IMG/VR virus record: IMGVR_UViG_3300029288_000081
Span: 1 to 64,000 of that record
Reading direction: 5' to 3' (one strand)
DNA: 64,000 nt
From: a virus
Lineage: Duplodnaviria > Caudoviricetes
Below the pieces are notes generated by a model. It saw nothing but the letters and a program-made list of their open reading frames with translations, had not been told where the DNA came from and searched no databases. Positions within the stretch are counted from its first letter, which is position 1, and the number at the start of each line of letters is the position of its first letter. Below, piece after piece: positions 5,255 through 58,402 of the stretch. Made by a program: the position numbers and the translations under genes.

Positions 5255-5710
5255 GTGCGTCCCTCGAAGCAGATCGAAACCTTGCGGCGTCTCGGCGTCT
5301 TCAAGAAGCGCGGATGGACGCAGGACGGTGTCGTGTATCGTGTGCGTCGCGGCAAGGTCTGTGTCATCGCGGCAGCCTCGGTCCACCGGAGGTCCGGCAA
5401 TCGCAGGCGAGTAGATGGAACCGGTCGGGATGGACGCATGGACTGGGAGCGTCAGAGGCGTGTGTTGAAGCAGGGGTTCCTTCGCCATGGTCCAGGTAGG
5501 TGGCGGGGGCAGCTTGCGCGTGAGCGCGCCGATCGATGGGATCTGTCGGCGGCTATGGATGAGTGGCTCTACACGTGGGAAACTTGGGCGATGGAGCACG
5601 ACCACTACGACGACGAGTGGGACGATTGGGACGAGACCCGGGACTGCTCTTGGACGGATCTGGGATGGTCGGTGACGTTTGTTGACCTCATGCCGATGTG
5701 GTTGCGCTGA
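5255..5710 (+). CDS. hypothetical protein, basic N-half and Trp/Asp-rich C-half (ETLRRLG motif)
   Basis: ORF directly after promoter; overlaps next start (TGATG). Confidence 0.55.
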   Translation: MRPSKQIETLRRLGVFKKRGWTQDGVVYRVRRGKVCVIAAASVHRRSGNRRRVDGTGRDGRMDWERQRRVLKQGFLRHGPGRWRGQLARERADRWDLSAAMDEWLYTWETWAMEHDHYDDEWDDWDETRDCSWTDLGWSVTFVDLMPMWLR

Positions 5711-6120
5711 TGTCGCGGATTCCACCGCAGATCTCCGAGGCTCTCCCGAAGCTCGTCGAGCTGGCGCAGAAGACGTACGACGAGTGGGATCAGGACGAAG
5801 AGGGCGTCGATGACGAGTTGGGCGTTGGCGGCATCTGCCATCTCATCGCAGAAGAGATCGTCGATGAGCTGAGCGGCCGCGGCCTCGACGCGACGACGGT
5901 CAACGCTCAGGTCGGCGAAAACCACGTGTGGGCTGTGGTCCGGATCGACAGCGGCAAGAACGCAGGCGTCTGGTCGATCGACATCCCGCCGGGAGTGTAC
6001 GAACGTGGCAGCGGTTACGCGTGGAAGAAGCTGCCAGACGTCTCCTTCGAGGTCGACGACATCAACGTCGAACACGAAAGCGCTGACCCGGCCGACTTCG
6101 ACAGATTCATGGAGGACTAG
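5710..6120 (+). CDS. hypothetical acidic protein
   Basis: GGICHLIAE...ENHVW segment; overlapping start. Confidence 0.7.
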   Translation: MSRIPPQISEALPKLVELAQKTYDEWDQDEEGVDDELGVGGICHLIAEEIVDELSGRGLDATTVNAQVGENHVWAVVRIDSGKNAGVWSIDIPPGVYERGSGYAWKKLPDVSFEVDDINVEHESADPADFDRFMED

Positions 6121-6467
6121 CGGTCGGCGCGCTCCAGCTTGCGACGGTCCACGAGATCGATGTCTGCCGCGCAGGAGACGCAGATGTTGAGCCGTACGCC
6201 GCAAGGACGACAGACGCGGTCCGTCTGGGTCGAGGAGTAGCACTGGTCGACCCCGCACGACTCGCACGGCTTGTTCGTGATCGCCTGGCCTCCGATACGC
6301 GACGAGCGTGCGTAGAAGCACCATCGGCACTCGTGCCGCTCCATCCGCTTGGCGCGGTCGAGGTCGGCGAAGGCGCGCTCCGCGTTCGCGATCCACTTGG
6401 CGAGCGCCTGTCGGTTGAACCGCGTCGCGTTCTTCACGTCCTCGATCGTCAGCTTCGGTTGCGCCAC
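6117..6467 (-). CDS. Cys-rich Zn-finger protein
   Basis: four CxxC pairs. Confidence 0.7.
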   Translation of the reverse strand: MAQPKLTIEDVKNATRFNRQALAKWIANAERAFADLDRAKRMERHECRWCFYARSSRIGGQAITNKPCESCGVDQCYSSTQTDRVCRPCGVRLNICVSCAADIDLVDRRKLERADR

Positions 6468-6468
6468 C

Positions 6469-6861
6469 TCAGTACCCGTCCTTGAACCAGCCAGAGCCCT
6501 TCAGGACGAAGCTGGTCGAGCCGGAGATCAGCCGGCGCACGGAGCCGCCGCAGGTCGGCGTGAACGCGGGCGTGTACTCGACGCAGTGGCATCGAGCGCA
6601 GCCGCCAAAGCCGCGCGGAGCGTCGCTGTAGTGCCGGTGCGGAGTCGGATCGTCTCCCTGGCACACGCAGCGGTCCGGGTGCTCGAAGAACGGTCGATAG
6701 TTCCACGAGATGGCCCCGCCGGCCCCGTTGAACGTGTCGAAGCGTTCGACTCGCGTTCGCGCGTCGGGGAGCGGGCAGGCAGCGAGCGGCGCCTCGGAGA
6801 TCTTCCGCTCGACCTCGAACGTCCTCTTGCACTTCTCGCACTCGTACTCGTAGACCGGCAT
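6469..6861 (-). CDS. FmdB-family Zn-ribbon protein with internal insertion
   Basis: MPVYEYECEKC...FEV...CP [insert] CGG..RRLIS...FVLKGSGWF. Confidence 0.8.
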   Translation of the reverse strand: MPVYEYECEKCKRTFEVERKISEAPLAACPLPDARTRVERFDTFNGAGGAISWNYRPFFEHPDRCVCQGDDPTPHRHYSDAPRGFGGCARCHCVEYTPAFTPTCGGSVRRLISGSTSFVLKGSGWFKDGY

Positions 6862-7199
6862 CAGGAATCCGCCCAGGCCGACCACACGGCCTTCTCGAAG
6901 CTCTTGATGCGACCCTCGGCAGCATCGCCTCCGGTCCCACGACTCCTCATCATCGTGACCGTGCCACCAACGAAAGCCTCCACCTCTTCACGACTCTCCA
7001 GCACGAGGACTTGCGGCGACTTGCCCGCTGGCCACGCCTGCTGGGTGAAGGCCATGCCCTGATCGGTCCGCTGATACCACTGAGCGATGTCGCATCCGCA
7101 ATCGCAGACCCACATCACCACCTTGCGGACGCCGGTGTGCGTGCTCGTGGCGTCGAGGAGGTTCGCAAGCATGTCCTCTCGCTTGTACCGGTGCATCAT
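6861..7199 (-). CDS. hypothetical protein
   Basis: MMHRYKRED..., chained overlaps with neighbours. Confidence 0.6.
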   Translation of the reverse strand: MMHRYKREDMLANLLDATSTHTGVRKVVMWVCDCGCDIAQWYQRTDQGMAFTQQAWPAGKSPQVLVLESREEVEAFVGGTVTMMRSRGTGGDAAEGRIKSFEKAVWSAWADS

Positions 7200-7468
7200 C
7201 AGACGCTCACTCCTGCGCGCTTGGCCGCCCGGCGCACGCGCTTGCGCTCGAACGGGGCGATCTCTTTCGCGTTCTCCGGGCTGAACGAGAAGAACTTCCC
7301 GCTGTTGCGGCAGACGCGCCTCGCGTGCATGAACTCTCCGAAGCCGAAGCCCGGCTCGATGTCGCTCATGACGTGCCCGCAGCGCCTGCACACCGCCTGA
7401 CGGTTCATCTCGGCAGCGCGGATCGTACGCGTCAGCCCGTTCATCTTCGCCATCTTGTAGCTGGTCAT
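7199..7468 (-). CDS. small basic Zn-binding protein
   Basis: CRRC...H...C; chained overlaps. Confidence 0.55.
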   Translation of the reverse strand: MTSYKMAKMNGLTRTIRAAEMNRQAVCRRCGHVMSDIEPGFGFGEFMHARRVCRNSGKFFSFSPENAKEIAPFERKRVRRAAKRAGVSV

Positions 7469-7719
7469 GCTCCCTCGGGATCCGTCAGCCGCTTCAGCGC
7501 ACGCGGTCCGCGCGGCGTCTCGATGCGCAGGCAGTCGACTCGGAACCACCTGTCGATGCCCAACTTCTCGTTGATGACGCGAGCATGGTCCCCCGCTGCA
7601 ACGGCCACGACGCACCAGACCCCCACCACCTTGCCATCATGAACGTGAGGCGCGACCACCCGCTGACCGTCGTGGACGTAGCGCGGCGAGTCCCACTTCT
7701 CGTTGATGGCAAGGGTCAT
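7465..7719 (-). CDS. hypothetical protein (C-terminal RALKRL)
   Basis: ATGA overlaps on both sides. Confidence 0.6.
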   Translation of the reverse strand: MTLAINEKWDSPRYVHDGQRVVAPHVHDGKVVGVWCVVAVAAGDHARVINEKLGIDRWFRVDCLRIETPRGPRALKRLTDPEGA

Positions 7720-8431: not shown

Positions 8432-8437
8432 GCGTCG

Positions 8438-8466
8438 AAAGTAACGTCTGTCAGACATGAGGTCAA
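8438..8466 (-). promoter_or_regulatory. sigma70-like promoter with TGTCTGACA in the spacer
   Basis: minus strand TTGACC-N17-TACTTT-6 nt-ATG; palindrome 8449-8457. Confidence 0.7.
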
Positions 8467-8517
8467 GGTCGAACGTGTCGGGTGGGCTGCAAGGCGCCCG
8501 GCGTGTAGAATCGGGCC

Positions 8518-11433
8518 GTGAGCTACGCAGATCATGACCATCCGTCGAGGTGCGCCTTCGACGACAAGCCGATCGGGCCGGACGACAACGGCATCTGCCC
8601 GAGCTGCTGGAAGGCCATGCAGAAGCCTCTGGCCGGCATCAAGGTCAACCGGGACGAGCTACGCGCGGTCCTCGCTGAGGCTTCCGAGGCTCTGCGTGCC
8701 GACCTGGAGGAGCAGGGGGACCTGACGCAGTCCAAGCCCGCCTTCGACGCGCTGGTCGCTGGCCTTCTGCACGTGGCACTCGCGGTCGAGTACGGCGACA
8801 GCGCCATCGACACGGTCGCGACCCGGGTGGACGAGGGCAAACTGGTCGTCGCGGCGGTCTACAACCTGGCCCAGGTGCTCGGCTACAAGGACGTGGCTTC
8901 CAAGCTACTCCGGTCTCGTCTCGGTGGGCCATCGGACGTCATCCGGTTTCGTGACGCCGGCAAGGGCACCTTGCAGGTCCACACGCCCTACGACGAGAAG
9001 TGGAACGTGCTGGCGCGCGAGAACAAGCAGATCTTCTTCACGGCGCCGCAGCAGGACAAGGGGTTCTGGTGGAGGACCTTCCACAGCTCCGAGCTGCGCC
9101 GGGTCGCGAACATGCTCCAGGGCGTCTTCGGCGACCAGCTCACGCTCGGCGTGAACGGCAAGCTCTTCGCTCTGCCGGCGATGCCGCTCCCCAAGGACGA
9201 CGACTTCGGCAAGCCGCCCACCGGCAAGCCGAAGGCGACGAACGAGACGCCGGACATCCCGCCCGAGATCGAAGGCATCCGCCTCGGGGACCGCATCAAG
9301 CTGCCGGGCGGCGGCGAGTCCATCGTGCAGTTCATCGACCCGCGCAAGAACAAGATCGGCGTCGGCGACGTGAAGGGCGGCAAGTACACCTTCTTCTCGT
9401 TCGACGTCGTCGAGACCGAGAACGGCAAGCCGGTCGCCGCGCGCATCAACGCTGAACGGCGCGCTGCTGGCGCGGAGATCGGTGGCACCAAGGTCGAAGA
9501 CCTCGTCATCGATCGCGTCATCCCCACGGCGATGAAGAACTACCAGATCGAGAGCGTGGCCTTCATCGAGAAGAATCGCCGCGTCATCCTCGCCGACGAG
9601 CAGGGACTGGGCAAGACGCTGAGTGCCATCGTCTGCATCGACCCCCCAGCGATCGTCGTCTGCCCGGCCACGCTCAAGCACAACTGGCTCAACGAGATCG
9701 CCAGGTGGCGACCAGACCTGACCACTGCGGTCCTGACCATCTCCGGCGGCGAAGCTCCGAGCGTGGCAGAGCGGAAGCGTGCGTCGGTGTTCATCCTGAA
9801 CTACGACATCATCGCCAAGCACCTGAGCTGGCTCGTCGAGCTGGGCGCCAAGACGCTCATCGCCGACGAGGCGCAGTACCTCAAGAACCTGGGCGTGAGG
9901 TGGGACAACCGGCTACGGGCCCACGGACCCACCGAACAGTCTCCCGCGCGAGCCCGCGCCTTCTACGAGCTGCACCGTAACATCCCGAAGCTCATCCTCG
10001 CGACCGGCACGCCGATCCTGAACAGGACGAAGGAGCTGTTCCCTCTTCTGCATATGTGCAGCAGCGAGGAGTGGAACAGCCAGACGCTCTTCCAGAAGAA
10101 GTATTGCGGCGCCTTCGAGGAGTCCACCGCACGAGGCACCGTGTGGAACGCCAACGGGCGCACGAACTCGGACGAGCTGCACAAGAGGATCAAGACGCGG
10201 TACATGATCCGCCACACCAAGGAGATGGTGCTCAGCGAGCTGCCTCCGAAGTCGCGCAGCTCGATCCCGGTGCCGCTCACCGGAAAGTGGAAGCGCATCT
10301 ACGCGCACCTGCGCAACGACTTCCTCACCTGGGTCTACGCGGAGGGTGGCCCCGAGCGCGTCATGAAGGCGTCGAAGGCTGAAGCCCTGACGCGCCTGAC
10401 GGCCATGCGGCGCGCCTCGGCGAACGGCAAGGTCGAGGCGGCGCTGGAGCTGATCTCCGGTCACCTGGAGAGCACCGGCTTCCGCCCTCTGATCGTCATG
10501 GGCGTTCATGCCGACGCCTTCGCGTCTCTCGGCGATGGGCTCGACGCGATCAACGTCCAGTTCGACGCGGATGTCGCGGCCGGCAGGATGCCGATGGTCA
10601 GCCGCAAGATCCGGTGGGACAGCTGCATCGGCTCGACAGGCCTCGCCAAGCGCGTGAAGGTGTGCGAGCGGTTCCAGAAGGTGGGCGACCTCGACGTCCT
10701 GCTCTTCTCGATCCCTCTCGCCACGGGGCTCACGCTGACGCGGTCGCAGGACATGATCTTCCTGGAGCGCATGTGGCGCCCTGCCGACCAGCTCCAGGCG
10801 GAGGACCGCATCCACCGCATCAGCCAGACGAACGCGGTGCAGATCACCTACCTCGACGGCGTGGGCACCATCGACCAGAAGATCGGCATGTTGCTCATGG
10901 ACAAGTCCAACACCGCGGCCGCGGTCATCGACGGGGAGGACCTCGACTTCGACAAGGCCTTCTACCGGGTGTTCGGCAACATGGTCGGCAAGGACGGCAA
11001 GAAGATCGACCCGTCCAAGCTCCGCGTCATCGAGTCGATCGCCGACCTCTTCGATGAGGACGAGGCTGAGGGCATCGACGCTGGTCAGAGCCTCTCCGAG
11101 CTGGTCGAGGCCCGCAAGGTCATGGAGCAGCAGAAGGCAGACCTGGCCAAGCTCAAGATGCAGACCGAGGGCATGACGTTCGAGGAGGGTATGGCCGAAG
11201 CGCAGAAGCTCGAAGAGGACATCGAGGTGTACGCGCGCAAGCTCCGCGAGAAGCGCGGCAAGCTGATGAAGCCCAACCGCTCCTCGGCAGACGACGGCCT
11301 GGAAGTGGGCGAGCTGTACCCGGGCCACGCGGCCGACCACGCACGCTACCTGCGGCTGAAGAGGGAGATCCCGAACTTCGACACCATCCTCGACAGTATG
11401 GTCATCGACTCCTGGGACCAGCCGCTGGACTGA
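8518..11433 (+). CDS. SNF2/SMARCAL1-like SF2 helicase
   Basis: LADEQGLGKT, VVCPATL, DEAQ, ATGTPILN, QAEDRIHRISQ motifs. Confidence 0.92.
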   Translation: MSYADHDHPSRCAFDDKPIGPDDNGICPSCWKAMQKPLAGIKVNRDELRAVLAEASEALRADLEEQGDLTQSKPAFDALVAGLLHVALAVEYGDSAIDTVATRVDEGKLVVAAVYNLAQVLGYKDVASKLLRSRLGGPSDVIRFRDAGKGTLQVHTPYDEKWNVLARENKQIFFTAPQQDKGFWWRTFHSSELRRVANMLQGVFGDQLTLGVNGKLFALPAMPLPKDDDFGKPPTGKPKATNETPDIPPEIEGIRLGDRIKLPGGGESIVQFIDPRKNKIGVGDVKGGKYTFFSFDVVETENGKPVAARINAERRAAGAEIGGTKVEDLVIDRVIPTAMKNYQIESVAFIEKNRRVILADEQGLGKTLSAIVCIDPPAIVVCPATLKHNWLNEIARWRPDLTTAVLTISGGEAPSVAERKRASVFILNYDIIAKHLSWLVELGAKTLIADEAQYLKNLGVRWDNRLRAHGPTEQSPARARAFYELHRNIPKLILATGTPILNRTKELFPLLHMCSSEEWNSQTLFQKKYCGAFEESTARGTVWNANGRTNSDELHKRIKTRYMIRHTKEMVLSELPPKSRSSIPVPLTGKWKRIYAHLRNDFLTWVYAEGGPERVMKASKAEALTRLTAMRRASANGKVEAALELISGHLESTGFRPLIVMGVHADAFASLGDGLDAINVQFDADVAAGRMPMVSRKIRWDSCIGSTGLAKRVKVCERFQKVGDLDVLLFSIPLATGLTLTRSQDMIFLERMWRPADQLQAEDRIHRISQTNAVQITYLDGVGTIDQKIGMLLMDKSNTAAAVIDGEDLDFDKAFYRVFGNMVGKDGKKIDPSKLRVIESIADLFDEDEAEGIDAGQSLSELVEARKVMEQQKADLAKLKMQTEGMTFEEGMAEAQKLEEDIEVYARKLREKRGKLMKPNRSSADDGLEVGELYPGHAADHARYLRLKREIPNFDTILDSMVIDSWDQPLD

Positions 11434-12122: not shown

Positions 12123-12661
12123 CCGCACCCATCGTCGTTTACACCGGTGCCTCTGTCTGGGAGGGTCGTCCGTACATCAAGGCGTCCCGCAAGGGTCGCT
12201 CCGAGCACGGGCCGGGGCTCTACTTCACGACGCGGCTCCAGACGGCGAGGAAGTACGCCAAGGGGCGCGGAGCCGTCCTGCGCGTGGAGATTGACCCGTC
12301 GTTCACATGGCTGGAGGACGCCACGGCTCCCATCGAAGACCTCGTGGAGTGGGTCTCCGGTCGGCGCGCCATGCGCAAGAAGATCGAGATCATCGACGAC
12401 ATCCTCACCCGAGCCAACCGCGGACTGCCTCCGGGCCGCGGTCGCGTGGCCACTCTCGTCAACCTGATGGTCAACTACAACGCCATCACGGGGGAGCACG
12501 GTCCCGCACTCGCCGAGTTCCTCGCGAGCCTGGGCATCGGAGCCTCGCATGTGAGGCAGTCGGATGAGGACTGGGTCGTCCTCTTCGACCCCTCGAAGGT
12601 CCTGTCCTGGCGCCGCGTGGGCCCCAATGACGCCGAGGACCTGCCGAGCGTTCGTCGCTAG
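12119..12661 (+). CDS. putative ADP-ribosyltransferase-like (polyvalent ART) protein
   Basis: VYTG...HGPGLYFTTRLQTARKYA...EDWVVLFDP. Confidence 0.6.
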   Translation: MTAPIVVYTGASVWEGRPYIKASRKGRSEHGPGLYFTTRLQTARKYAKGRGAVLRVEIDPSFTWLEDATAPIEDLVEWVSGRRAMRKKIEIIDDILTRANRGLPPGRGRVATLVNLMVNYNAITGEHGPALAEFLASLGIGASHVRQSDEDWVVLFDPSKVLSWRRVGPNDAEDLPSVRR

Positions 12662-13008
12662 CGATGGAAGATCGGCCCGAGCCGGCTGTCGCCGGTCGCC
12701 GTGGGCACCGAACTCTGGAGCCTCTTCAGTGCCACCTCGCGTCGATGGTGTGCGAGCGCTTCGGGGTCGGTCACGTGGGGCCATCCCCCGTCGGCGATGT
12801 AGACGCTCCAGGTCCGCGTCGGCGCCGGGGCGCCTGTCTCGGATGGCAGCTTCAGGCCTGGAACGACGACGAGCAGCTTGGCGCGGCCCATGTCGGCAGC
12901 GAGCCGTGAGAGCGGGTACACCTCGAAGGGCCGGTCTCTCGCCGCTCTGTTCAAGATCTCCACCGCTTCGCTGGTGAGAGTCCCGTCAGTGTGGCGCATC
13001 TCGGTCAT
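12658..13008 (-). CDS. hypothetical protein (VALKRLQ motif)
   Basis: MTEMRH..., ATGA overlap. Confidence 0.55.
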   Translation of the reverse strand: MTEMRHTDGTLTSEAVEILNRAARDRPFEVYPLSRLAADMGRAKLLVVVPGLKLPSETGAPAPTRTWSVYIADGGWPHVTDPEALAHHRREVALKRLQSSVPTATGDSRLGPIFHR

Positions 13009-13412
13009 CGACGAGCCCGACAGAGGATGCACGAGGAGCGCTCTTCCCCGTGCCGGCACGCAGCTGCCTTCGCCTCTTCGAGGGTGACCAGGGTGACCGG
13101 CGGAGGCGGGCTCTGCGTCGTCGTCGAGGCGATCCACACGGTCGCATGACGGCTCGTCCTCGTCAGCCTGGTGCGCCCCGAGTCGACGACGAGGTCCTTG
13201 AGCACCAGCCCACGACGCCTCGCACTCGCTGTCTGGTGCAGCAGATGAAGTGCCTGCTCCACCTCGTCGTCGGTCGCGCCGAAGTTGCCACAGGTCCGGA
13301 TGAGGTCGAGGACACGAGCCTCGTCTACGGCCGCCTTGCCCACCTGCGACGCGGCGGCGGCCTGGCTGGTAGAAGATCCTGCAACGTAGGGTCGATATGG
13401 CTTGCGGCTCAC
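13005..13412 (-). CDS. winged-helix DNA-binding protein
   Basis: GATDDEVEQALHLLHQTASARRRGLV..LVVDSGRTRLT...A.VW. Confidence 0.8.
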   Translation of the reverse strand: MSRKPYRPYVAGSSTSQAAAASQVGKAAVDEARVLDLIRTCGNFGATDDEVEQALHLLHQTASARRRGLVLKDLVVDSGRTRLTRTSRHATVWIASTTTQSPPPPVTLVTLEEAKAAACRHGEERSSCILCRARR

Positions 13413-13636
13413 GGTTCAGCTCCCTCTTCGGACGTAGCACCAATGCTCTTCAGTTCTTGCCAGCCGTTGCCAGTGAGAACGCCTGTGAAGACGTGGACGC
13501 AGCCGGCGACTACCGCGATGTCCCCCACCTCCACATCGCGGCACGGGAGGCTCTCGGGTGCTCCGAACTCTCCCCAGTGCCTCATGAAAGGAGGAGGTTC
13601 CTTCAGCCGCCGCAGAGCTTCCCCGCGGCGACTCAC
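13409..13636 (-). CDS. small protein, paralog of 13633-13923
   Basis: EALRRLKEPPP..HWGEF. Confidence 0.7.
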   Translation of the reverse strand: MSRRGEALRRLKEPPPFMRHWGEFGAPESLPCRDVEVGDIAVVAGCVHVFTGVLTGNGWQELKSIGATSEEGAEP

Positions 13637-13923
13637 GGCTCAGATCCGTTCTTGGCAGCGTTGGCAGCGTACTCCGCGTAGGCGCGTGCGAATCGAGCAA
13701 GGTCATCACCGCTCATCTTCGGTGGCGCTTTCACGCCCAGAGGTGCTGACCACTCTGAAGCAACGAAGACGTGCATGCCGGCAGGCGTCGCTGCCGTGTC
13801 TCCGTTCTGCACACGAACGCTTGTCCGAAGACGGTCGAGCGCAGCGACATCGGGGAACTCTCCCCAGTGCAACGGTGGACGCGGGTCCTTCAGTCGACAC
13901 AGAGCCTCCTTGCGGCTACTCAT
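13633..13923 (-). CDS. small protein, paralog of 13409-13636
   Basis: EALCRLKDPRPPLHWGEF. Confidence 0.7.
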   Translation of the reverse strand: MSSRKEALCRLKDPRPPLHWGEFPDVAALDRLRTSVRVQNGDTAATPAGMHVFVASEWSAPLGVKAPPKMSGDDLARFARAYAEYAANAAKNGSEP

Positions 13924-14197
13924 CGTCGTCCTCGGGCGGCGGCTCGCCGATCTGATCGATCCAATCGAACGCGGGCCCCCGCCGCTGAGCCGTCTCCCAG
14001 ATCGTCACATGCTTCAGGCACTCGGGACAGGTCGGCCTCCGCTTCTCGTAGCCGAGCTTGAACTCAGCCCACTTCGCGCAGGAGGTGTAGGCGCCCATCC
14101 GCAAGATCGGCGGCGGCGTGGCCTGCTCCTGCGTCAAGTGCCACACCCCGGCGAGCATCACGCACTGGTAGACAGGATTGAGGTAGGCAGTGCTCAT
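13916..14197 (-). CDS. small Zn-binding protein
   Basis: H...C...CPEC; chained overlaps. Confidence 0.6.
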   Translation of the reverse strand: MSTAYLNPVYQCVMLAGVWHLTQEQATPPPILRMGAYTSCAKWAEFKLGYEKRRPTCPECLKHVTIWETAQRRGPAFDWIDQIGEPPPEDDDE

Positions 14198-14511
14198 CGG
14201 TTCCTCGGCCGGCTCGGCTCAGGAGGCTCGTAGCCTTCGATCCATCCACTGCCCGGATGCTTGTCGAACGCATCCTTCGCGCACTGCTCCGAGCAGAAGG
14301 GTCGGGAGGACATGCGATCGCCGCCATCGTTCGTGACCACCACAAGGCGCCACGTGCGACCGCCAAGCGGCACCGGGTCGACGAACGTGCCACCGCAGCC
14401 ACGACAGGTGATCTCGACGATCTTGGCCCCGAGCCGCCTCAGCGTGGCGACCCGACGCTCGTACATCTCACGCCCCTGCTCGGTCACAGCAACGATGCTC
14501 ACTGCGCCCAC
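14194..14511 (-). CDS. small Zn-finger protein (ATLRRLG)
   Basis: CRGC...FCSEQC. Confidence 0.65.
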   Translation of the reverse strand: MGAVSIVAVTEQGREMYERRVATLRRLGAKIVEITCRGCGGTFVDPVPLGGRTWRLVVVTNDGGDRMSSRPFCSEQCAKDAFDKHPGSGWIEGYEPPEPSRPRNR

Positions 14512-14750
14512 TCCGGCGGCAAGTACGCTTGCTTCGGCACCGTCGCCAGATTGAGCTGCCGCTTGCTATCTTCCTCGCGCACCTCGCGCCGCACCTCATG
14601 CCTGAGCCAGTCGACGTAGCACTGGTCACAGAGACGCGCGCCGTGCCTCAAGCCCTTATGCCCGTGCCGTGGCTCGCAGTTGGGCTCGGAGCACACCTCG
14701 CACACCGGGAAGCCCAGTCTGCGAGCCGCCTCGTTGCGCTCGTCGGTCAC
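14499..14750 (-). CDS. small Zn-finger protein (EAARRLG)
   Basis: CEVC...CDQC. Confidence 0.65.
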   Translation of the reverse strand: MTDERNEAARRLGFPVCEVCSEPNCEPRHGHKGLRHGARLCDQCYVDWLRHEVRREVREEDSKRQLNLATVPKQAYLPPEWAQ

Positions 14751-15266: not shown

Positions 15267-15590
15267 ATGGCTCGCACCCTCTTCCTCGCGACGATGCTCC
15301 TCGCCGGCTGCGCCGGCAGTCCGCCTCCCGAGGAGACGCTCTCGTGCTTCACCGACGCGGCTCTCACGGAGTGCATCGAGTTCGGGCCCGGGTTCTCCGA
15401 GGACACAGCGCTCGGCTTCTGCGTCGACTTCCTCCTGCTGCCTGGCCCGTGCGTCATCGGACGCGTCGGACACTGCACCGCTGCTCTCGACGGTGCCGAG
15501 CTGACCGTCTCCTGGTACGGCGACAACCGCACGGTCGACGAACAGGTGGCCACCTGCACGGCGCTCGACGGGAGCTACGAGGCGAACTGA
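15267..15590 (+). CDS. Cys-rich lipoprotein
   Basis: MARTLFLATMLLAG|C lipobox; six further Cys. Confidence 0.8.
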   Translation: MARTLFLATMLLAGCAGSPPPEETLSCFTDAALTECIEFGPGFSEDTALGFCVDFLLLPGPCVIGRVGHCTAALDGAELTVSWYGDNRTVDEQVATCTALDGSYEAN

Positions 15591-16336
15591 TGTCGGCCAT
15601 CAGGAAGAAGCCGTGGGACATCGTCCCCGAGATGAGCGAAGCCAGCTCCCGCAGCATGAAGAGCCTTGCTGCGCTCGCCGCCACCGTCGTACAAGACGTC
15701 CTCGGTCCCTCGCCGCAGGCGGACAAGGAGGCGGAAGACAACAAGGCGTACCAGCTGTACCTGGCCAACTGGCACGATGTCGTTCGCCGCATGCGCGCGA
15801 TGTCCGATGACGAGTACGAAAGTGCCGTTGCGGACGGGCTCCCAGGCCCCTGCCCGGTCAGGCCCGAGCAGCGTGCGCAAGGGCAGCTGGACGCGTGGCT
15901 GCACGAGAAGCTGCGCCTGCGTCTCATGGGCCGGATCGACGAGGTCCTCATGGACGTGATCGGCATCGAGAACAGCTTCGGGACCATGCGCCTGAAGAAC
16001 ACCACGAACGCCCCCTTCGCCGCCCTTCTCAGCGCCAAGGCGCGCGACGTGGCCAACGACATGGTGAAGAAGTGGGTGGAAGAGAACCCCGATGTCGTCT
16101 TCAAGCCGGCGAAGATGGATGAGATCTCCGCTGGGTACAGGCGCGAGCTGGAAGGGGCGACGAGGATGGCCATCTCCGAGCGCATCAAGCGCATCGCACA
16201 GGAGCGCGCCGAGAGCATCCGTGCCGAGGTGCTGGAAGCGGCTGTCGACGAGGCGATGTTCGACACCTACCCGGTCCTGCGCCGCATGGACGCGCTCTCT
16301 CGCCTGGGCGCGAAGCCCGAGGCCGAGGCGGAGTAG
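15590..16336 (+). CDS. hypothetical helical protein (C-terminal DALSRLG)
   Basis: TGATG overlap; GC3 bias. Confidence 0.7.
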   Translation: MSAIRKKPWDIVPEMSEASSRSMKSLAALAATVVQDVLGPSPQADKEAEDNKAYQLYLANWHDVVRRMRAMSDDEYESAVADGLPGPCPVRPEQRAQGQLDAWLHEKLRLRLMGRIDEVLMDVIGIENSFGTMRLKNTTNAPFAALLSAKARDVANDMVKKWVEENPDVVFKPAKMDEISAGYRRELEGATRMAISERIKRIAQERAESIRAEVLEAAVDEAMFDTYPVLRRMDALSRLGAKPEAEAE

Positions 16337-16731: not shown

Positions 16732-16916
16732 CCAGTTCAGAAGTCTCCTGGAGCACGGTCGAAGCGGCCATGGCGCGGCTCAAGCGTGGCCAGGGGCGGG
16801 AGGGTGACTTCGCTCTCGTGCAGCAGGCGTTCAGGCAGGATCCTCGGAAGTACGCCCAGCTGAAGGCTGCGGTGGACAAGCAGGTCATCGCCGACGTGCG
16901 GAAGGGGCTCGGCTGA
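16728..16916 (+). CDS. small protein (AAMARLK)
   Basis: GTGA overlap with the DUF192 stop. Confidence 0.5.
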   Translation: MTSSEVSWSTVEAAMARLKRGQGREGDFALVQQAFRQDPRKYAQLKAAVDKQVIADVRKGLG

Positions 16917-16919: not shown

Positions 16920-17468
16920 ATGAAGGTCTTGGCCATCAACCACGAGGGAGATCCGCTCTTCGTTCGCGACGAGCGTGGGCGCGACTTCGAGGTCGAGGTC
17001 CACGTGACGACCGACACGTGGAGTGGTGCCCGCTTCTTCCACAGTCACTCCGGGACGATCGCAAACCCGTCGTCTGTCGCCGTGCCGCCCACTCGTGTCC
17101 TGATGGCTCACTCTCTTCCGACTGCCGAAGAGCGTGATGAGCATCGGCGCCGAGCACGGGGGGTCGCGCTGCTGGGTGGAGACGTCGAGGACCCGGTCTC
17201 CGCTCGTCGGCGCAGGGCTGACACGCGCAACTGGGTACGCAGCGTGCAGCGCCCCGCACAGGACGTGCTCATCAAGACGGAGTCGCTCGTGACCAAGATG
17301 CGGTCGATCGTCCTGTCAGCTACAGCTCAGGACAGGGTCGCGGGACCGTCCAGCGAGACACAGGAGAAGCGCGCCGAGGCGCTGCGCAGGCTGCAAGATC
17401 CTCCGACGCTGACGCCGCACGATGTGATGCTCTTCATCGACGGACTCCGGAGCCGAGACATCTTGTGA
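16920..17468 (+). CDS. hypothetical protein (EALRRLQ)
   Basis: ORF in co-oriented chain. Confidence 0.6.
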   Translation: MKVLAINHEGDPLFVRDERGRDFEVEVHVTTDTWSGARFFHSHSGTIANPSSVAVPPTRVLMAHSLPTAEERDEHRRRARGVALLGGDVEDPVSARRRRADTRNWVRSVQRPAQDVLIKTESLVTKMRSIVLSATAQDRVAGPSSETQEKRAEALRRLQDPPTLTPHDVMLFIDGLRSRDIL

Positions 17469-17767
17469 GTATGGAGGGCTGGAAGGCGATGGGTCGCCTC
17501 GGTGTGCCCACGTTCGTCTGCGATGGTTGCACACGTGTCTCGCCACTCCATATGTCCAACAGCATCAGCATCCGCGGTCGGCACTGGCGGGTAGAGAGCC
17601 GGTGGCGCCGTGACCATCTGAACGCGTGGCACGTATCCGCCTGGATCGCCTGCTCGCAGGAGTGTGCTGTCGCAATCGCGGAGCGAGAGAAGCGCGCCTA
17701 CGGGCAGCAGTTGCCCAAGCTGACCTTCGCCGTCCACGGGCCGTACACCCCGAACGACTCCGCGTGA
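17465..17767 (+). CDS. small Zn-finger protein (KAMGRLG)
   Basis: CDGC...ACSQEC. Confidence 0.65.
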   Translation: MSMEGWKAMGRLGVPTFVCDGCTRVSPLHMSNSISIRGRHWRVESRWRRDHLNAWHVSAWIACSQECAVAIAEREKRAYGQQLPKLTFAVHGPYTPNDSA

Positions 17768-18048
17768 TGCACTACCACCACTGCCCCTTCTGCTACGAAG
17801 CGTTCTCGTGCGAGATGCGATGCACCATCGAGCCAGATCTCGAAGACCGCGGCCGCGACTTCGGCAGTCATACGGTGTGCCACGACATCGCGTGCCAGCT
17901 TGCGGCCGCCGCGCATCGGTACGACGAGCGGCACGAGCAGCGGAAGCGAGACGCCCTCCAGCGGCTTCAGTCGCCGCTCCAGAACATCGGAACCGAGAAG
18001 GACGCGCGGTACACCCTTCCTGGCATTCACCGGCGACCCGTCGCATAG
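17767..18048 (+). CDS. small Cys/His protein (DALQRLQ)
   Basis: MHYHHCPFC...C...C...CHDIAC. Confidence 0.6.
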   Translation: MHYHHCPFCYEAFSCEMRCTIEPDLEDRGRDFGSHTVCHDIACQLAAAAHRYDERHEQRKRDALQRLQSPLQNIGTEKDARYTLPGIHRRPVA

Positions 18049-18805: not shown

Positions 18806-19134
18806 CGCGTCTCAAGCTCCGAGAGCGGAAGTTCGGGCTCCTCTGGTTCGGGGAGCACGTCCAGGACCGCTGGAACATCACCGACCCCGAGTCCGAGCGG
18901 CTGAGAGAGGCGTGCCGTCGGCTGCGGCCAGATGGTCCGTCTACGAACGGCGGCGAGTGGCCTGAGCGTACACCAGAGGAGCGTCAGCGTGACGACGACA
19001 TCTACGTCTTGCTCCGCGTCGTCGAAGACTATCAGCACCTGACTACCTACGTGCTGGGCATCGAGCACATCATCAAGAAGCTGCGTGCCATCTGGCGCGC
19101 GGTCCGAGGAGGAAGCGATGGCCGAGTCGGATGA
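18802..19134 (+). CDS. hypothetical protein (EACRRLR)
   Basis: GTGA overlap. Confidence 0.6.
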   Translation: MTRLKLRERKFGLLWFGEHVQDRWNITDPESERLREACRRLRPDGPSTNGGEWPERTPEERQRDDDIYVLLRVVEDYQHLTTYVLGIEHIIKKLRAIWRAVRGGSDGRVG

Positions 19135-44865: not shown

Positions 44866-45935
44866 GTTGCCTCCATCCATTCCTTGAGTCTCTCGACCCA
44901 CTGCGCCGCAGCGTACTCCCACGACCCCCACCCAGGCTCCGCCGCCTCGCCGACGCTGACCGTCGCCTGGGCCATCCAGTCACGTGCGAAGGGGGTGATG
45001 GCCAGGCTGAGCATCTCCGTGAACGTGGCGCCGTCCACGACGGGCGCGAGGCCCGCCTCGAACGCGAGCGGCCGCATGTGCGGCGTTGGGATCGGCAACC
45101 ATGCGCCAGGGCGCAGCGCCAGGAACTCCGCGTGTCCTGTGTTGCAGGTCGTCAGGAGCGGCACCTGGGCCACGAGCGCCGCGAGCATCATCATCCCGAA
45201 GCCCTCGGACCGCGAAGGCGCCACGATTAGGTCGGCGTGCTCGTAGAGAGTGGTCAGGTCCTGGTCACTCGTGCCCAGGGCGCCCGAGGGCTCGTAGGTC
45301 ACCGTCTCGTCGATGCCGAGGTCGGCGATCCTGTAGAGGGCGTCCTTGCGGAGCGCAGGCGGCCCATGGATCGTCAGGACGGCGTCCGGACCGGCTCGAC
45401 GCCGGCTCCACGCTTCGAGAAGCGTCTCGGTGCCCTTGCGGCTCGGCCAGGCCTGGTCGCTGGTGAAGTGCAGCACGCGCACCGGGCCGCCGATGGCTCG
45501 ATCCGTCTTGTGGAGAGGGCCAGAGATCGGACTCCCGAGCGGGAGCACGGACACCGAGTCGATCTCCGACGACCGGAGAGTCGTGTTGGCGCAGAACCTC
45601 GACGGAGCGATGGCAAGCCCGAACTTGCTGATCGTCTCTCCATGCTCCTCGATGAGAGTGTCCGTGTTCGGGCTCACGAAGATGGCCGACCGCTCGCGGC
45701 CGAACATCTCCGCGTAGCCCGAAACGTAGTGGTTGGGCGCCGCGACCAGCAGCGTGTGTGTCGGGGTTCCCGCAGCGCTACGGAGGCCGCTCCACCTGGG
45801 ATGCCAGGACTGATCGAAGTTCTGGCAGCCGGCGAGCATGCCAGCGTCACGCAGCGCCTCGGCCACGCGCCCAGCGACCGTGGCGTACGAGTAGAGGGTC
45901 CCGAAGTGACCGGCGACGAGGATCATCAGAGCCAC
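44862..45935 (-). CDS. GT4 (GT-B) glycosyltransferase
   Basis: RKGTETLLEAW; PSRSEGFGMMMLAAL. Confidence 0.85.
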   Translation of the reverse strand: MALMILVAGHFGTLYSYATVAGRVAEALRDAGMLAGCQNFDQSWHPRWSGLRSAAGTPTHTLLVAAPNHYVSGYAEMFGRERSAIFVSPNTDTLIEEHGETISKFGLAIAPSRFCANTTLRSSEIDSVSVLPLGSPISGPLHKTDRAIGGPVRVLHFTSDQAWPSRKGTETLLEAWSRRRAGPDAVLTIHGPPALRKDALYRIADLGIDETVTYEPSGALGTSDQDLTTLYEHADLIVAPSRSEGFGMMMLAALVAQVPLLTTCNTGHAEFLALRPGAWLPIPTPHMRPLAFEAGLAPVVDGATFTEMLSLAITPFARDWMAQATVSVGEAAEPGWGSWEYAAAQWVERLKEWMEAT

Positions 45936-48250
45936 TCCCGAGCCTTCTCGGACGACAAGATCTTCCGCAGCGCCTCACGCAGAGGACCGAGCGTCGCAGG
46001 TCCGAACGCCTCGCGGATGTACTCCGCCGACGCCACGTCGACCATGCGGCCCTCGGTCATCGCGGCGCGCATGGTACCAGCGAGGTCGGCGACTGCGTAC
46101 GTGCCCCACTTCGTGCTGCGCTCGAACATGAGCCCGAGCTTCATCATCGCCGGGTCGACGGGGGTCAGGTGGTGACTGAAGAGGTGATCGCAGAACGACC
46201 CGCTCTCCACCCGCGTCTCGAAGATCATCTCTCCGACCGCGCCGTAGTCACTCGACACGATGGGCACGCCCTGAGCCTTGGCCCAGACGTGCGGGATGCC
46301 CAGGCCTTCGCCGTAGGACGGATTGACGTAGCAGTCGAGCGTGCCGAGCCACTCGATCACCTGCTGGTCATCCAGGTCGGTGCCCAGCTCCAGCTGAAGC
46401 CTCGGCATCTTCTTGGACGCGGGGAAGTTGTCGTCGCCGAACTCCTTGGCGATCTCGGCGATCTCCGCCGTGAGCTGTTCCTTGAACTTCTTGATCGTTA
46501 TGCCGCTGTTGAGCGGGCTCGTGCGGATGACGAGCACGACCGGCTCGTCGCGAGTGAAGTTGCCGAAGTACGCGCGCAGCAGGTCGAACATGCCCTTGCG
46601 CTTCTGCCAGGTGCCGAGCGTTCCGAGGACGAACGGGTCGGCCCAGGTGACGAGGCGGTTCTTCGCCTTCTGGAGCTGCTCGATCGGCGTCATCTTCCAG
46701 AAGCCGCTCGTGAGCATCGGTCGGACGACGTCCACTCGTCCTTCCGGCACGCCAGCCGCGACGAAGGCGCTCTTGACGAACTTGCTGACGACCCAGACCT
46801 GCTTGAAGATCGGCCCGGTCGCGAGGTCCCTCGCGTACCGCGAGACCCTGTCGCCCTCGAAGGCGCAGTACGGGATGACGGGGCAGCTCCCCTCGTCTTC
46901 CATCTCGGCGGCCACCTCCAGGGGGAAGCTCACGAAGAGCGCCTGAGGCCAGCCGACCGCTTCCTTCGTCCACTCGAAGAGCTGCGCGTCGCGGTCCTTC
47001 GGGAAGCGCTCGATGTCGATATCCATCGATCGGTGCGGCGTGAGCTGCGTCTTGATCTTCAGCTCCTTCGCGAGCATCCAGTGCAGCGCCACGGCGTGCG
47101 TGGCGTAGCCGGAGCGGTGCGCGGTGCCGAAGCAGTTACCGGTGAGCAGGTTTCCCTCAAGCGCGAAGGTATGAGTCTCCGGCACCTCAGCGCAGAACAC
47201 TTCCTCGACCGTGCCGGTAGCTTCGACGAAGTCGACGAACCAGTCACGACGCTCCTTACCTGACTTGCGAGCCAGCCACCGCTCCCTGTGCTCCCTGACG
47301 AGAAAGAAGTCTTCAGTCAGAGCATTGCGTCCGAAGGCGATCATGTACCAATCACGCAAGCCTTCGCTGAAGCCGCCAGACCGGTGGGTTGCGCGGACGC
47401 CATAGGTAAAGATCCCAAGCTGACGACACACCCTGTCAACGTGTTCGACGGCAGACACCGACGCGCTCCCCAACGTGGGACGGCCCTCCTCGTCTACGCA
47501 CCCGTCGGCCGCGAAGTAGCCAGCGAGCCAGCCGTAGAGGTACGACGGAGACTCGTTGAGGTCGGGCAGCGTCTTGAAGTGGTTCGGAAGCCCGACGATC
47601 CTAACGCCGGACACTCCGCCGTCGGTTTTGTAATCGTAACGGTTCCCCCACGGGAAAAACTGCGAGAGGGCAAGATCCTTCTCGCCCCAAAGTGTCGCCG
47701 CTGTCCCTCGCTCCTCGTAGTGGCCGTCACCGAAAACGAATCCGTGAGCAACGGCCCAGGGAGACACGGCAAGCGTGCCCGAACGCGGGAACGCGGCAGA
47801 CCGCAGTCGCATATCCTTCTTCAGGTCACACGTTGTGATCTCGTCCCAGGAGGGATCACCATGCGGCTCCGACGCGAACCAACGGTGACCGTCCGTTGCG
47901 CGGATGATCTTGGTCTGGCCATTGCGGCGAATGCCGATCTTGAAGAGCTGCTGCTGGCCAAACGACTTGATGGGTGCCATCACCCACTTGGAGTAGCCGC
48001 GCACATCCGTCGTCAAGACCTCGACGGTCTGACCCGCGAGCGATCCGATCGGCACCCCACCGCATCGCATCAGCACCTGGGTCTCCGCGGCCAGACAATG
48101 CCAGAGCCCGTGGACATCGTAGCCATCGGCCGGCGGGGCGACGTAGTTGCGAATGGGCGAGTGACGAACCTGATCCTCGAACGACTTCAGATCGTCGTGC
48201 GGGCGATCCTTGTACTCGGAGAAGTTCGCATCGTCGGGCGTGTCTGACAT
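45926..48250 (-). CDS. GT4 glycosyltransferase containing an intein
   Basis: SGYA, RKGMFDLLRAY, PSYGEGLGIP; ATG at 48250 follows TTGCTT-N17-TAGGGT. Confidence 0.85.
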   Translation of the reverse strand: MSDTPDDANFSEYKDRPHDDLKSFEDQVRHSPIRNYVAPPADGYDVHGLWHCLAAETQVLMRCGGVPIGSLAGQTVEVLTTDVRGYSKWVMAPIKSFGQQQLFKIGIRRNGQTKIIRATDGHRWFASEPHGDPSWDEITTCDLKKDMRLRSAAFPRSGTLAVSPWAVAHGFVFGDGHYEERGTAATLWGEKDLALSQFFPWGNRYDYKTDGGVSGVRIVGLPNHFKTLPDLNESPSYLYGWLAGYFAADGCVDEEGRPTLGSASVSAVEHVDRVCRQLGIFTYGVRATHRSGGFSEGLRDWYMIAFGRNALTEDFFLVREHRERWLARKSGKERRDWFVDFVEATGTVEEVFCAEVPETHTFALEGNLLTGNCFGTAHRSGYATHAVALHWMLAKELKIKTQLTPHRSMDIDIERFPKDRDAQLFEWTKEAVGWPQALFVSFPLEVAAEMEDEGSCPVIPYCAFEGDRVSRYARDLATGPIFKQVWVVSKFVKSAFVAAGVPEGRVDVVRPMLTSGFWKMTPIEQLQKAKNRLVTWADPFVLGTLGTWQKRKGMFDLLRAYFGNFTRDEPVVLVIRTSPLNSGITIKKFKEQLTAEIAEIAKEFGDDNFPASKKMPRLQLELGTDLDDQQVIEWLGTLDCYVNPSYGEGLGIPHVWAKAQGVPIVSSDYGAVGEMIFETRVESGSFCDHLFSHHLTPVDPAMMKLGLMFERSTKWGTYAVADLAGTMRAAMTEGRMVDVASAEYIREAFGPATLGPLREALRKILSSEKAREWL
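47135..48097 (-). mobile_element. intein (321 aa) with LAGLIDADG homing endonuclease
   Basis: H|CLAAET...ATDGHRW...HGFVFGDG...LAGYFAADG...VFCAEVPETHTF...LTGN|C. Confidence 0.9.
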
Positions 48251-56590: not shown

Positions 56591-56884
56591 ATGGGCTACT
56601 CGCAGGTCACGGGCATGAGTTCGACGCGCTTCCCTCTGAAGGGGCTGAGCGGGTGTGGTTGCCAGGCCACGAGCGGTCTGGGGCAGGTCGAGAACTCGCC
56701 TCTCGGCGGGCTCCTGGCGCTTGGGCTCTTCGGAACGCTCGCGTACCTGACCTTCACGAGCCCGGGGACGTGGAAGATCGGCAGGGACGTGACCTACACG
56801 AGCGGTGGCTACTACGACCACGGGTTGGGCAAGTGGGTGACCCCGAACCGTCGTCGCCGCGGGCGCGGCCGCCGTCGGCGCTGA
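56591..56884 (+). CDS. membrane protein with GLGQ motif and Arg tail
   Basis: LKGLSGCGC..SGLGQ, TM helix, WVTPNRRRRGRGRRRR; TATAGT 7 nt upstream. Confidence 0.75.
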   Translation: MGYSQVTGMSSTRFPLKGLSGCGCQATSGLGQVENSPLGGLLALGLFGTLAYLTFTSPGTWKIGRDVTYTSGGYYDHGLGKWVTPNRRRRGRGRRRR

Positions 56885-56891
56885 GGTCTCC

Positions 56892-57104
56892 ATGCGGCCG
56901 ATGTTCATCTGGCGAGATCCTCGCGGCGTCCTGGTCGCCGACGTGGTCCAGATCGCGAAGATGACCCCCGCAGGCCCGCGCGCCTTCTACGTTGCCCGGG
57001 TCCAGGGTGAGCAGGTCGAGAAGCCCCGCTTCGGCTGCGCCAAGCGCGTCGTCGAGGGGTGGCTGCGCCAGAACGGCATCCGGGCAACCGTCAGCGCGGC
57101 GTAG
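56892..57104 (+). CDS. small hypothetical protein
   Basis: GAGG RBS. Confidence 0.55.
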   Translation: MRPMFIWRDPRGVLVADVVQIAKMTPAGPRAFYVARVQGEQVEKPRFGCAKRVVEGWLRQNGIRATVSAA

Positions 57105-57600
57105 TCGCAAGCCTGACCTGCCTCTTCGATGGGAAGTCGAACGACGGTGGCTTGCTGCGCCACACGATGACGATGGCCCCCGACGACCTGTTGGCGTAGG
57201 CAGACCGGGCTCGACGCACGGTCGCCCACGTGCCGGAGCGGGCCTCTTCCTGGTCCATCTTCGGTACCGCGATCAGCAGGTCTCCGGCCGCTGCGATGGG
57301 GCCGTTGCGTTCGAGAGGGGGCATCGGATCGGACAGGAGCTTCGCTCCACGTCGATCGCAGTGGGCTCGCTTGTTGTCCATGTCGGAGGGGTAGATCCCA
57401 CGCATGATGCCCTGCTCGACGCAGATCTCATCGAACATCGCATCCGCACCCACGCAGTCGCCGTGGACCGCCCGCAACCGGCTCCCGTGCCGCGCCTTCA
57501 GCTTCGCGAGCATCTCTGCCACGAAGGCCCGCTGCTCGCGCGTCATCCCGAGCTGCGTGCCCGTGAAGGACACGACGAAGCGGTCGCGCTGCTCGTTCAA
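57091..57600 (-). CDS. SLOG-superfamily (DprA/YspA-like) nucleotide-binding protein
   Basis: SFTGTQLGMT..Q, HGDCVGAD, RNGPI, RSGTWATVRRA. Confidence 0.75.
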   Translation of the reverse strand: MNEQRDRFVVSFTGTQLGMTREQRAFVAEMLAKLKARHGSRLRAVHGDCVGADAMFDEICVEQGIMRGIYPSDMDNKRAHCDRRGAKLLSDPMPPLERNGPIAAAGDLLIAVPKMDQEEARSGTWATVRRARSAYANRSSGAIVIVWRSKPPSFDFPSKRQVRLATTPR

Positions 57601-58010
57601 GGCTTCCAGCCCTTCGGCGGCTTCCAGCCGGCAGCCTGAGCCGTCTTCGCCCATTCCGGCCACGGGACACCCGTCTCGTACTGGGCTCGCGCAGCCTTGA
57701 GGCTCGCCTGCATCTCCTTGAGGAAGCGCCTGGCAACAGAGACGCTCTCGAAGGTGTAGCCTGCCATCGTGGCGGTGACCAGATCCCGGTTCTGCTCCAC
57801 CCACTCCCGGGCATCGACCTCGATCGCAAAATACTCGAAGTCGCTCAGGTCGCGCTTGACGTAGGCCGCATCCTTCTTGGTTCGGAGCTTGGCGACCGGC
57901 GTGCCCTTGTCCTGCCCCACCCAGGCGCCCTCGCCGTCGCCGTCTTCGTCGCACCACGCGACGATCAGGCCTTCGCGCACATCGAAAACGCCCAGCTTGC
58001 TCTTGCTCAT
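57597..58010 (-). CDS. hypothetical protein
   Basis: MSKSKLGV...; GGAG RBS. Confidence 0.65.
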   Translation of the reverse strand: MSKSKLGVFDVREGLIVAWCDEDGDGEGAWVGQDKGTPVAKLRTKKDAAYVKRDLSDFEYFAIEVDAREWVEQNRDLVTATMAGYTFESVSVARRFLKEMQASLKAARAQYETGVPWPEWAKTAQAAGWKPPKGWKP

Positions 58011-58402
58011 CAGACCGCTCCGTTCGAGTGCAGCCTCCTGAAGGCCTCCCACCGATCATGTTGGATCAGGAGGTAGCGCAGCCGAGAGATCGGCTTGCGC
58101 AGCCGCTGGTCCTCGTAGCTGTTCCAGCTGCGCCTCGGTCCACCCGCCAAGGCCTCCTGCCTGTATCGCTCGGCGCTCTCGATGAACCTCCGCAGTGCGC
58201 TCAACGCGTTCTCGCGGTGCAAGCCGGGTCGTGCGACAGGCTGCGTGTTGATGGAGAGCCTGCTCTGCTGGACGTAGCTATCACGGGTGTCGCACAGGGA
58301 AGGCGCCCTCTTTCCGGACAAGCGCTGCGCCTTCGCAAGACGACCAATGAAGTCGTTCATCGCAGCCTCGGTGTCGCGAGCGAGGCCGAGGGGGTTATCC
58401 AT
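58010..58402 (-). CDS. hypothetical protein (C-terminal EAFRRLH)
   Basis: TGATG overlap. Confidence 0.55.
   Translation of the reverse strand: MDNPLGLARDTEAAMNDFIGRLAKAQRLSGKRAPSLCDTRDSYVQQSRLSINTQPVARPGLHRENALSALRRFIESAERYRQEALAGGPRRSWNSYEDQRLRKPISRLRYLLIQHDRWEAFRRLHSNGAV

Follow-up and report, generated by a model that had tools for sequence, protein, structure and literature searches.

A recurrent and conserved peptide tag on small early-region proteins of an uncultivated Caudoviricetes phage

The early region and its recurrent peptide

The first 64,000 nucleotides of IMG/VR virus record IMGVR_UViG_3300029288_000081, an uncultivated phage (Caudoviricetes), were analysed here and are referred to as the window; they belong to a single contig of 171,466 bp (66% GC) that is rated as 100% complete by CheckV. 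A first-pass annotation had reported that a short peptide, (E/D)-A-L-x-R-L-(G/Q/K/R), recurs on about 25 small proteins encoded between positions 5255 and 58402, and this peptide, called the tag below, is the subject of the present analysis. Gene calling with a self-trained periodic Markov model gave 266 proteins covering ~92% of the genome, among which an SNF2 helicase, UvrD, endonuclease VII, a ParB-like helix-turn-helix protein, DUF192, RtcB and sugar-modifying enzymes could be recognised. Most proteins, including the large late ones, have no Pfam or PHROG family match. No close relative was identified in the phage collection or in IMG/VR, and homologues occur in metagenome assemblies only. 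The best matches of the DegT aminotransferase, which was looked at for an indication of the host, are a mixture of Alphaproteobacteria and Bacillota (50-58% identity).

Presence of the tag was first checked by six-frame translation and then among the called proteins. All 25 heptapeptides first reported were recovered, within ~12 nt of where they had been placed, as was a looser SLRKLG on the minus strand at ~56470-56487, within the GT4 gene 55348-56565. The whole proteome contains thirteen matches to the strict motif [ED]AL.RL[GQKR], whereas shuffling each protein predicts 0.11. Of the thirteen, twelve fall in the 66 proteins of the early region (5-37 kb), where 0.03 are expected and none of 300 shuffles reached twelve, and a single match was found among the 33,060 residues encoded at 64-171 kb. 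All twelve early matches lie in coding frames, with none in the five other frames, while the reversed motif is absent and permuted forms (LR.LA, LA.RL, RL.AL, AL.LR and others) occur as often as expected. Scanning IMG/VR with a degenerate DNA pattern returned single scattered matches only, and these were reused as a control set; 55 other viral loci (GC >0.62, 489 kb), each chosen for one EALRRLG, hold ~2 further strict matches. An unbiased gapped k-mer scan of the early-region proteins ranks AL.RL first (18 occurrences in 16 proteins against 0.7 expected, P ~1e-19), and its top twelve words are all fragments of the tag motif. Tagged proteins make up 23 of the 66 in the early region compared with 7 of the 200 elsewhere in the genome.

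The first-pass annotation had cautioned that A, L and R are abundant in GC-rich proteomes. A, L, R and G are indeed the four commonest residues of this proteome and AL.RL is ~3.6-fold enriched in the untagged late region also, but permutations, other frames and other GC-rich viral DNA all remain at or near expectation, and the motif exceeds every control by about two orders of magnitude. A composition artefact is ruled out by the shuffle, permuted-motif, other-GC-rich-DNA and k-mer controls. The observation of the tag is therefore secure, being far too frequent for chance.

The tag was aligned, and its positions counted, over 31 instances selected with a score threshold. The extended motif is [RK][RK]x[ED]A[LM][RK]RL[G>R,Q,K]x(P)(P), of ~10-12 residues, with four to five Arg or Lys per ten residues. 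Counting the acidic residue as position 0, a basic residue stands at -3 in 15 of the 31 instances and at -2 in 19, and proline stands at +8 in ten; these flanking columns played no part in the choice of instances, and around generic EALRRLG sites, drawn from 117 other viral loci, the corresponding frequencies are 9%, 30% and 3%. Leave-one-out counts show specificity at every position (for example, R in 11/12 at position 4 and L in 11/13 at position 5). Thirteen tags start within the first ten residues of their protein (2.7 expected, P<5e-5; N-terminal placement of the generic sites is only 11%), while four lie near the C-terminus against 4.3 expected, so that the closeness to a terminus described earlier holds for the N-terminus and does not hold for the C-terminus.

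That Gly or Pro often follows the motif was borne out, Gly occupying position 6 in 18 instances in addition to the prolines at +8. Together with L2 and a hydrophobic residue at +7 (14/31), this Gly gives the pattern hydrophobic-x-x-x-Gly-hydrophobic, the standard Schellman helix C-cap, which accounts for a helix stop but not for the specific E-A-L-R-R-L body. On a helical wheel, A1, L2 and L5 would line up as a small stripe of hydrophobic residues, with E0, R3, R4 and R-3 making up a charged face, and the Gly with its hydrophobic neighbour, or alternatively Pro, probably ends the helix. Downstream of the tag the column profile runs from G to V/A/D and then becomes P-rich, with no conserved x-E site and with a second Gly in a few instances only.

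Conservation in relatives and exchange of modules

Comparisons were made with three relatives. Relative A (an 87-kb Logan contig, L118 and L125) and relative B (L119-121, 126 and 127) are syntenic with the phage from SNF2 to UvrD at ~50-75% protein identity, and relative C (JGI contig L214) is more distant. The relatives show the same tag consensus as the phage. Identity over the ten columns of the tag, taken across 13 orthologous instances, is 67% compared with 44% for the remainder of the alignments, and the tag is the more conserved part in 11 of the 13. The tag persists in orthologues with only 26-40% overall identity. Random loss of the motif among homologues, which had been named beforehand as an outcome that would speak against it, was not seen.

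Codons at the tag were found to vary freely, as had been suggested. Pairs of identical residues among tag copies use identical codons in 35.2% of cases, where genome codon usage predicts 36.4%, and 97 of 160 tag residues conserved between the phage and its relatives are encoded by different codons. As codon choice is as free as the codon usage of the genome permits, the constraint lies at the peptide level, and a DNA-level repeat or recombination linker is excluded by this randomness both among copies and between orthologues.

The arrangement of the tag relative to the domains that follow it is best illustrated by gene 21935-22474 and its surroundings. The 179-residue product carries DALRRLG at residue 4 (21944-21964, plus strand), where it opens an SH3-like module, and EALRRLR at residue 79 (22169-22189, plus strand), at the junction before a second module named here after its ELFGRGD sequence. 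The adjoining gene 22471-22776 encodes a tandem SH3-like paralogue with DALRRLG at residue 4 of 101 (22480-22500, plus strand). P0002, a homologue with three tags, was used as the query of an exhaustive search, in which its SH3-like, small Zn and ELFGRGD modules were found as separate genes or fused in four combinations, each module always being opened by its own tag. The ELFGRGD module also stands alone with an N-terminal tag (P0003, P0006, P0007 and P0014-16), while distant homologues of lower-GC appearance (P0018-P0025) begin at the domain itself and have no tag. In the AlphaFold2 (AF2) model of a lone tagged ELFGRGD module (P0006, model m80d006537e63; equivalent to the module at 22190-22474) the body, two beta-hairpins and three helices, has a predicted local distance difference test score (pLDDT) of ~90 and the tag helix, at residues 3-10, one of ~51. 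Foldseek comparison of this module with the PDB gave no match at E<=0.001. The model of the two-module protein 21935-22474, which is too poor to be relied on (pLDDT 44), places helix at residues 3-8 and 73-82. In the family of gene 26562-27098, RALRRLQ (26820-26840, plus strand; residue 87 of 178, followed by NEPP) opens a conserved C-terminal module in 9/9 homologues, with a variable N-terminal part ahead of it.

Because modules keep their own tags, distant homologues of one module are tagless and the modelled body is confident where the tag helix is not, the tag is a lineage add-on that is separable from the folds that come after it. It multiplies through tandem duplication and through fusion and fission of adjacent genes. 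In sum, the tag is clade-specific, portable, selected as a peptide, independent of fold, mostly N-terminal and retained at fusion junctions.

It was also observed that the adjacent SH3-like, Zn and ELFGRGD modules form one, two or three genes in relatives (21935-22776 in the phage; P0002, P0004, P0009, P0010 and P0026). By Rosetta-stone logic, this suggests that the products of the three modules act together.

Carriers of the tag and other features of the genome

The carriers had been described as otherwise unrelated. This applies to ~17 of them, which are not similar to one another and are predicted to be of different structure types, but 12 of the 31 instances fall in three paralogue groups, chiefly a zinc-ribbon family resembling FCS zinc fingers. 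BLAST identified the paralogue pairs 21935/22471, 13409/13633 and 30547/108585. The statement that the tag sits on bodies of different folds was upheld, beta-rich, zinc-ribbon, helical and membrane-anchored bodies all being represented.

The zinc-ribbon family has seven members, in whose alignment RLG and four Cys are invariant. In the window it includes gene 14194-14502 (ATLRRLG at 14428-14448, minus strand, ahead of CxxC; residue 19, or residue 7 from an alternative ATG), gene 14499-14750 (EAARRLG at 14712-14732, minus strand, residue 7 of 83; identical in relatives A and B), gene 17465-17767 (KAMGRLG at 17483-17503, plus strand, residue 7 of 100; KAVLRLG in relative A) and gene 22760-23071 (DALGRLG at 23036-23056, minus strand, residue 6 of 103). 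Their bodies show CxxC ... CSxxC spacing and have zf-FCS/TRASH-like structural neighbours in the Atlas, which for the 22760-23071 protein align from residues 10-11 onward, past the start of the tag. Weak Pfam matches to zf-FCS, YacG and DUF7576 were obtained (best E 0.0016-0.03), all below the curated cut-offs. The Cys spacing, weak Pfam matches and Atlas neighbours thus liken these bodies to zf-FCS/TRASH/YHS-like ribbons (PF06467, PF04945, DUF3330), which however lack such an N-terminal helix. No Pfam zf-dskA_traR match (the DksA/TraR C4 zinc finger) was found at E<=0.1 in the carriers searched, and ten carriers gave no helix-turn-helix family match at E<=0.1 that would indicate an excisionase/MerR-type domain (EAAxxLGVS...). 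What follows the tag is a beta strand with CxxC, a Pro run or SH3-like strands, and not a recognition helix. Searches of Pfam and PHROGs with tag carriers and their neighbours gave almost no matches overall.

The SH3-like group has three members, of which one in addition to the tandem pair described above is open reading frame (ORF) 5255-5710 (ETLRRLG at 5276-5296, plus strand, residue 8), whose gene call is uncertain beyond ~35 aa. Two HWGEF paralogues are encoded on the minus strand by gene 13409-13636 (EALRRLK at 13601-13621, residue 6 of 75) and gene 13633-13923 (EALCRLK at 13888-13908, residue 6 of 96; EALRRLC in relative A). In gene 30547-31068, MAAQRLG (30877-30897, plus strand, residue 111 of 173) marks the junction before a C-terminal zinc ribbon, and is degraded to LAVQLLG in relative A.

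Several of the remaining plus-strand instances are N-terminal or nearly so: DELRRLG in gene 19118-19447 (19130-19150, residue 5 of 109), EALRRLG followed by AEPPPP ahead of a Cys-rich body in gene 19882-20175 (19909-19929, residue 10 of 97; identical in relatives A and B), EALLRLR in gene 27095-27595 (27119-27139, residue 9 of 166) and QAMKRLR in gene 30012-30302 (30081-30101, residue 24 of 96; RVLRRLR in relative A). A weak AAMARLK (16764-16784), under the score threshold, opens a small gene whose end is at 16916. EAMRRLG in gene 36020-36370 (36125-36145, residue 36 of 116) directly follows a hydrophobic N-terminal segment, and EACRRLR in gene 18802-19134 (18907-18927, residue 36 of 110) is followed by P. 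Placed further along their proteins on the same strand are DALSRLG in gene 15590-16336 (16289-16309, residue 234 of 248; EAAERLG in relative A), EALRRLQ in gene 16920-17468 (17376-17396, residue 153 of 182, followed by DPP; EVLKRLR and EALKRLQ in relatives at 26-27% overall identity), DALQRLQ in gene 17767-18048 (17950-17970, residue 62 of 93; AALRRLL in relative A) and EALRRLG in gene 29040-29729 (29541-29561, residue 168 of 229; unchanged in relatives A and B, whose proteins are 36-40% identical overall). On the minus strand are RALKRLT in gene 7465-7719 (7483-7503, residue 73 of 84; RALSRLQ in relative A and RALKRLL in relative C), VALKRLQ in ORF 12658-13008, which has a weak coding score (12715-12735, residue 92 of 116), and the tag-like EAFRRLH in gene 58010-58402 (58028-58048, residue 119 of 130). 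Six tag-like sites lie past the window, in genes 71051-71329, 87575-88018, 108238-108588, 108585-109133, 125867-126346 and 128030-128503 (genome coordinates), the last being just under the threshold used for the count of tagged proteins.

The UvrD helicase, singled out earlier as the one large enzyme with a close match, does contain RALRRLG (34473-34493, plus strand), but the same column reads RSIRKLG in relative C; the match is probably due to chance and UvrD is not counted as a carrier. EALTRLT in the SNF2 domain of gene 8518-11433 (10381-10401, plus strand) belongs to an enzyme core of 72% identity and is without the flanking residues of the tag; it is probably not a member either.

Some further features of the genome were recorded. 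The window contains 28 predicted tRNA genes (regions 48476-48631 and 59877-64000); the one at 48476-48556, with an abnormal four-base anticodon call (gcga), adjoins RtcB (48994-51111). A glycosyltransferase group 1 protein (45926-48250, minus strand) has a LAGLIDADG_3 match at residues 240-289, which suggests an intein or inserted homing endonuclease, and the SNF2 gene of relative C (L214 2274-6197) likewise has LAGLIDADG and Hom_end matches. The large paralogues 1360-3033 (plus strand) and 65482-66948 (minus strand, genome coordinates) are 27% identical over 538 aligned columns, the former possessing a PcfJ-like region and C-terminal pentapeptide repeats. Outside the early region the most enriched words are Arg/Ser-rich runs (RR.SRR and similar), distinct from the tag, which occur 37 times in 11 proteins where 0.12 would be expected (positions 37000-64000, loci L128-L133).

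Possible role of the tag

The tag is tentatively read, at somewhat less than an even chance, as a docking or targeting helix that lies exposed, is bound by a single shared partner and has spread as genes were duplicated, fused and split. This reading is preferred because the peptide is conserved in a sequence-specific manner on unrelated bodies, is exposed at termini and junctions and was added in one lineage. Judged from the residue pattern, the tag would be a short amphipathic helix with the A1/L2/L5 stripe and a salt-bridged charged face (E0, R3, R4 and R-3). Terminated by a Schellman-type Gly or by Pro, the helix would stay exposed, and a single partner, of phage or host origin, could grip it. 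Some 30 different accessory proteins might thereby be handled as one group for localisation, loading or delivery, with new copies of the tag arising by tandem duplication, fusion and fission of neighbouring tagged genes. A more specific version, in which the tag is an address label whose one reader sorts these proteins, for example for loading into the procapsid for injection or for parking on a host machine, is possible but doubtful.

Several points weigh against a docking helix. No candidate for the reader emerged, most of the conserved neighbours being without family assignment; a TPR-like secreted protein encoded beside SNF2 in relative A was considered as one, and the present phage does not encode a counterpart of it. 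As docking elements go, the helix has little length and little hydrophobic character, the paralogous copies (12/31) mean that descent explains part of the count, and relative C, in which the region is more compact, has ~3 tags in 20 kb, so that a dedicated machine is not obviously needed. The docking or addressing tag proposed in the first-pass annotation is accordingly upheld as regards a portable, peptide-selected element conserved in orthologues, present on multiple folds and kept at fusion junctions; for the proposed hub no reader was found, and nothing separates a host partner from virion packaging, compartment import or a degron.

Known peptide tags offer partial parallels. The capsid targeting sequence (CTS) of phage T4 is the only element common to the diverse internal proteins IPI, IPII, IPIII and Alt (PMC3012670). 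Like it, the tag is a short conserved peptide on diverse, fast-evolving small phage proteins, and the CTS is portable to foreign proteins. Unlike the N-terminal CTS, to which it has no sequence likeness, the tag is found within proteins as well, where modules begin, the 18 instances beyond the first ten residues being internal or, in four cases, near the C-terminus, and its carriers are found among early replication and recombination genes. Encapsulation peptides are amphipathic helices of 15-20 residues joined to the body by a poorly conserved linker (PMC4594438). Those of bacterial microcompartments (BMCs) resemble the tag in being short amphipathic helices at the termini of unrelated proteins, with a break or linker before the body, and in that homologues outside the system lack the extension. 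They differ in their length, in conserving the hydrophobic pattern alone and in having long linkers, whereas the tag is ~10 residues long, conserved in sequence and strongly basic, with a break of 1-4 residues. No match to the shell proteins of BMCs (PF00936) or to encapsulin (PF04454) was found in the genome. A further comparison is with bacterial hub-docking motifs such as the beta-clamp-binding motif, the C-terminal tail of SSB and the SspB XB peptide for ClpX, where one short peptide on many unrelated proteins likewise serves one reader; these have other sequences and are mostly C-terminal or of extended conformation. The tag would be of the same kind as the address-type peptides of diverse phage proteins. 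Literature searches, made both with the peptide strings and for N-terminal motifs that phage proteins share, found nothing relevant to it, nor any description of this peptide or of a comparable tag in a phage of this type.

Other explanations of the tag were weighed against a docking helix. One, considered rather unlikely, is that it is an inherited structural cap without a common reader, in which helix and Gly/Pro stop aid solubility or link or cap the fold, having been carried along from one ancestral small gene as the duplicated bodies diverged or were replaced. The tandem paralogue pairs, the seven-member zinc-ribbon family with RLG as invariant as its four Cys and the good fit of L2-x-x-x-G6-hydrophobic7 to a Schellman stop are all in its favour, as is the enrichment of AL.RL in the untagged late region, which indicates that the core is a favoured helix pattern. 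It does not readily explain why the same specific residues are found on differing folds at saturated synonymous divergence, or why distant homologues fold the same domain without the tag, and if the helix packed against its body, the two should co-vary. Improbable is a generic anchoring arm, a basic amphipathic helix with weak affinity for nucleic acid or anionic membrane and no specific address. Although the tag is rich in Arg and Lys, many of its bodies are of the zinc-ribbon or SH3-like types typical of nucleic-acid binders and one carrier has it right after a hydrophobic segment, non-specific electrostatic arms rarely hold an invariant E-A-L-x-R-L order and a hydrophobic stripe of this size would not suffice for insertion into a membrane.

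The chance is slight that the tag is a processing signal at which a protease removes a leader (including a cleaved leader of the T4 capsid-targeting type) or separates fused modules, even though it would then be nearly neutral for a stop codon between modules to be gained or lost, and even though the tag stands at N-termini and wherever modules are joined in fused forms, with fusion and fission frequent among relatives. A helix-prone motif of ten residues, often directly followed by Pro, is atypical of a cleavage site, and the carriers are located among replication and recombination genes. The prohead-protease consensus (L/I-x-E in T4) does not follow the tag in the 31-instance profile, a second Gly, as in double-glycine leaders, comes after a few tags only, and no C39 (PF03412), Prok-JAB or ClpP protease was found in this genome, which CheckV rates as complete. 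Slighter still is the prospect that the tag is a self-associating sticker whose pairing gathers tagged proteins into a single body or condensate, the more so if they carry two or three tags. Multivalent fusions such as P0002 do exist and helical encapsulation peptides of BMCs are reported to drive condensation (PMC12339742), but a single heptad with A, L and L is very weak for helix pairing. Chance, GC-rich composition or a translated DNA-level repeat, suggested by the abundance of A, L, R and G, can be considered already refuted by the huge excess over all composition controls, the random codons and the specific flanks.

In large phages the small orphan genes number in the dozens, and what they do is obscure. 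If the shared tag is under purifying selection, it would point to one common route for one in three of these genes within the clade, and the pattern of fusion and fission offers a simple way for new tagged genes to arise. Were the tag an address label, the phage would, together with the Arg/Ser-tail signature of its late genes, possess two peptide sorting codes. A single reader would then provide a handle on all carriers at once, and the tag itself would be a portable peptide for steering foreign proteins down the same route, comparable to the CTS of T4.

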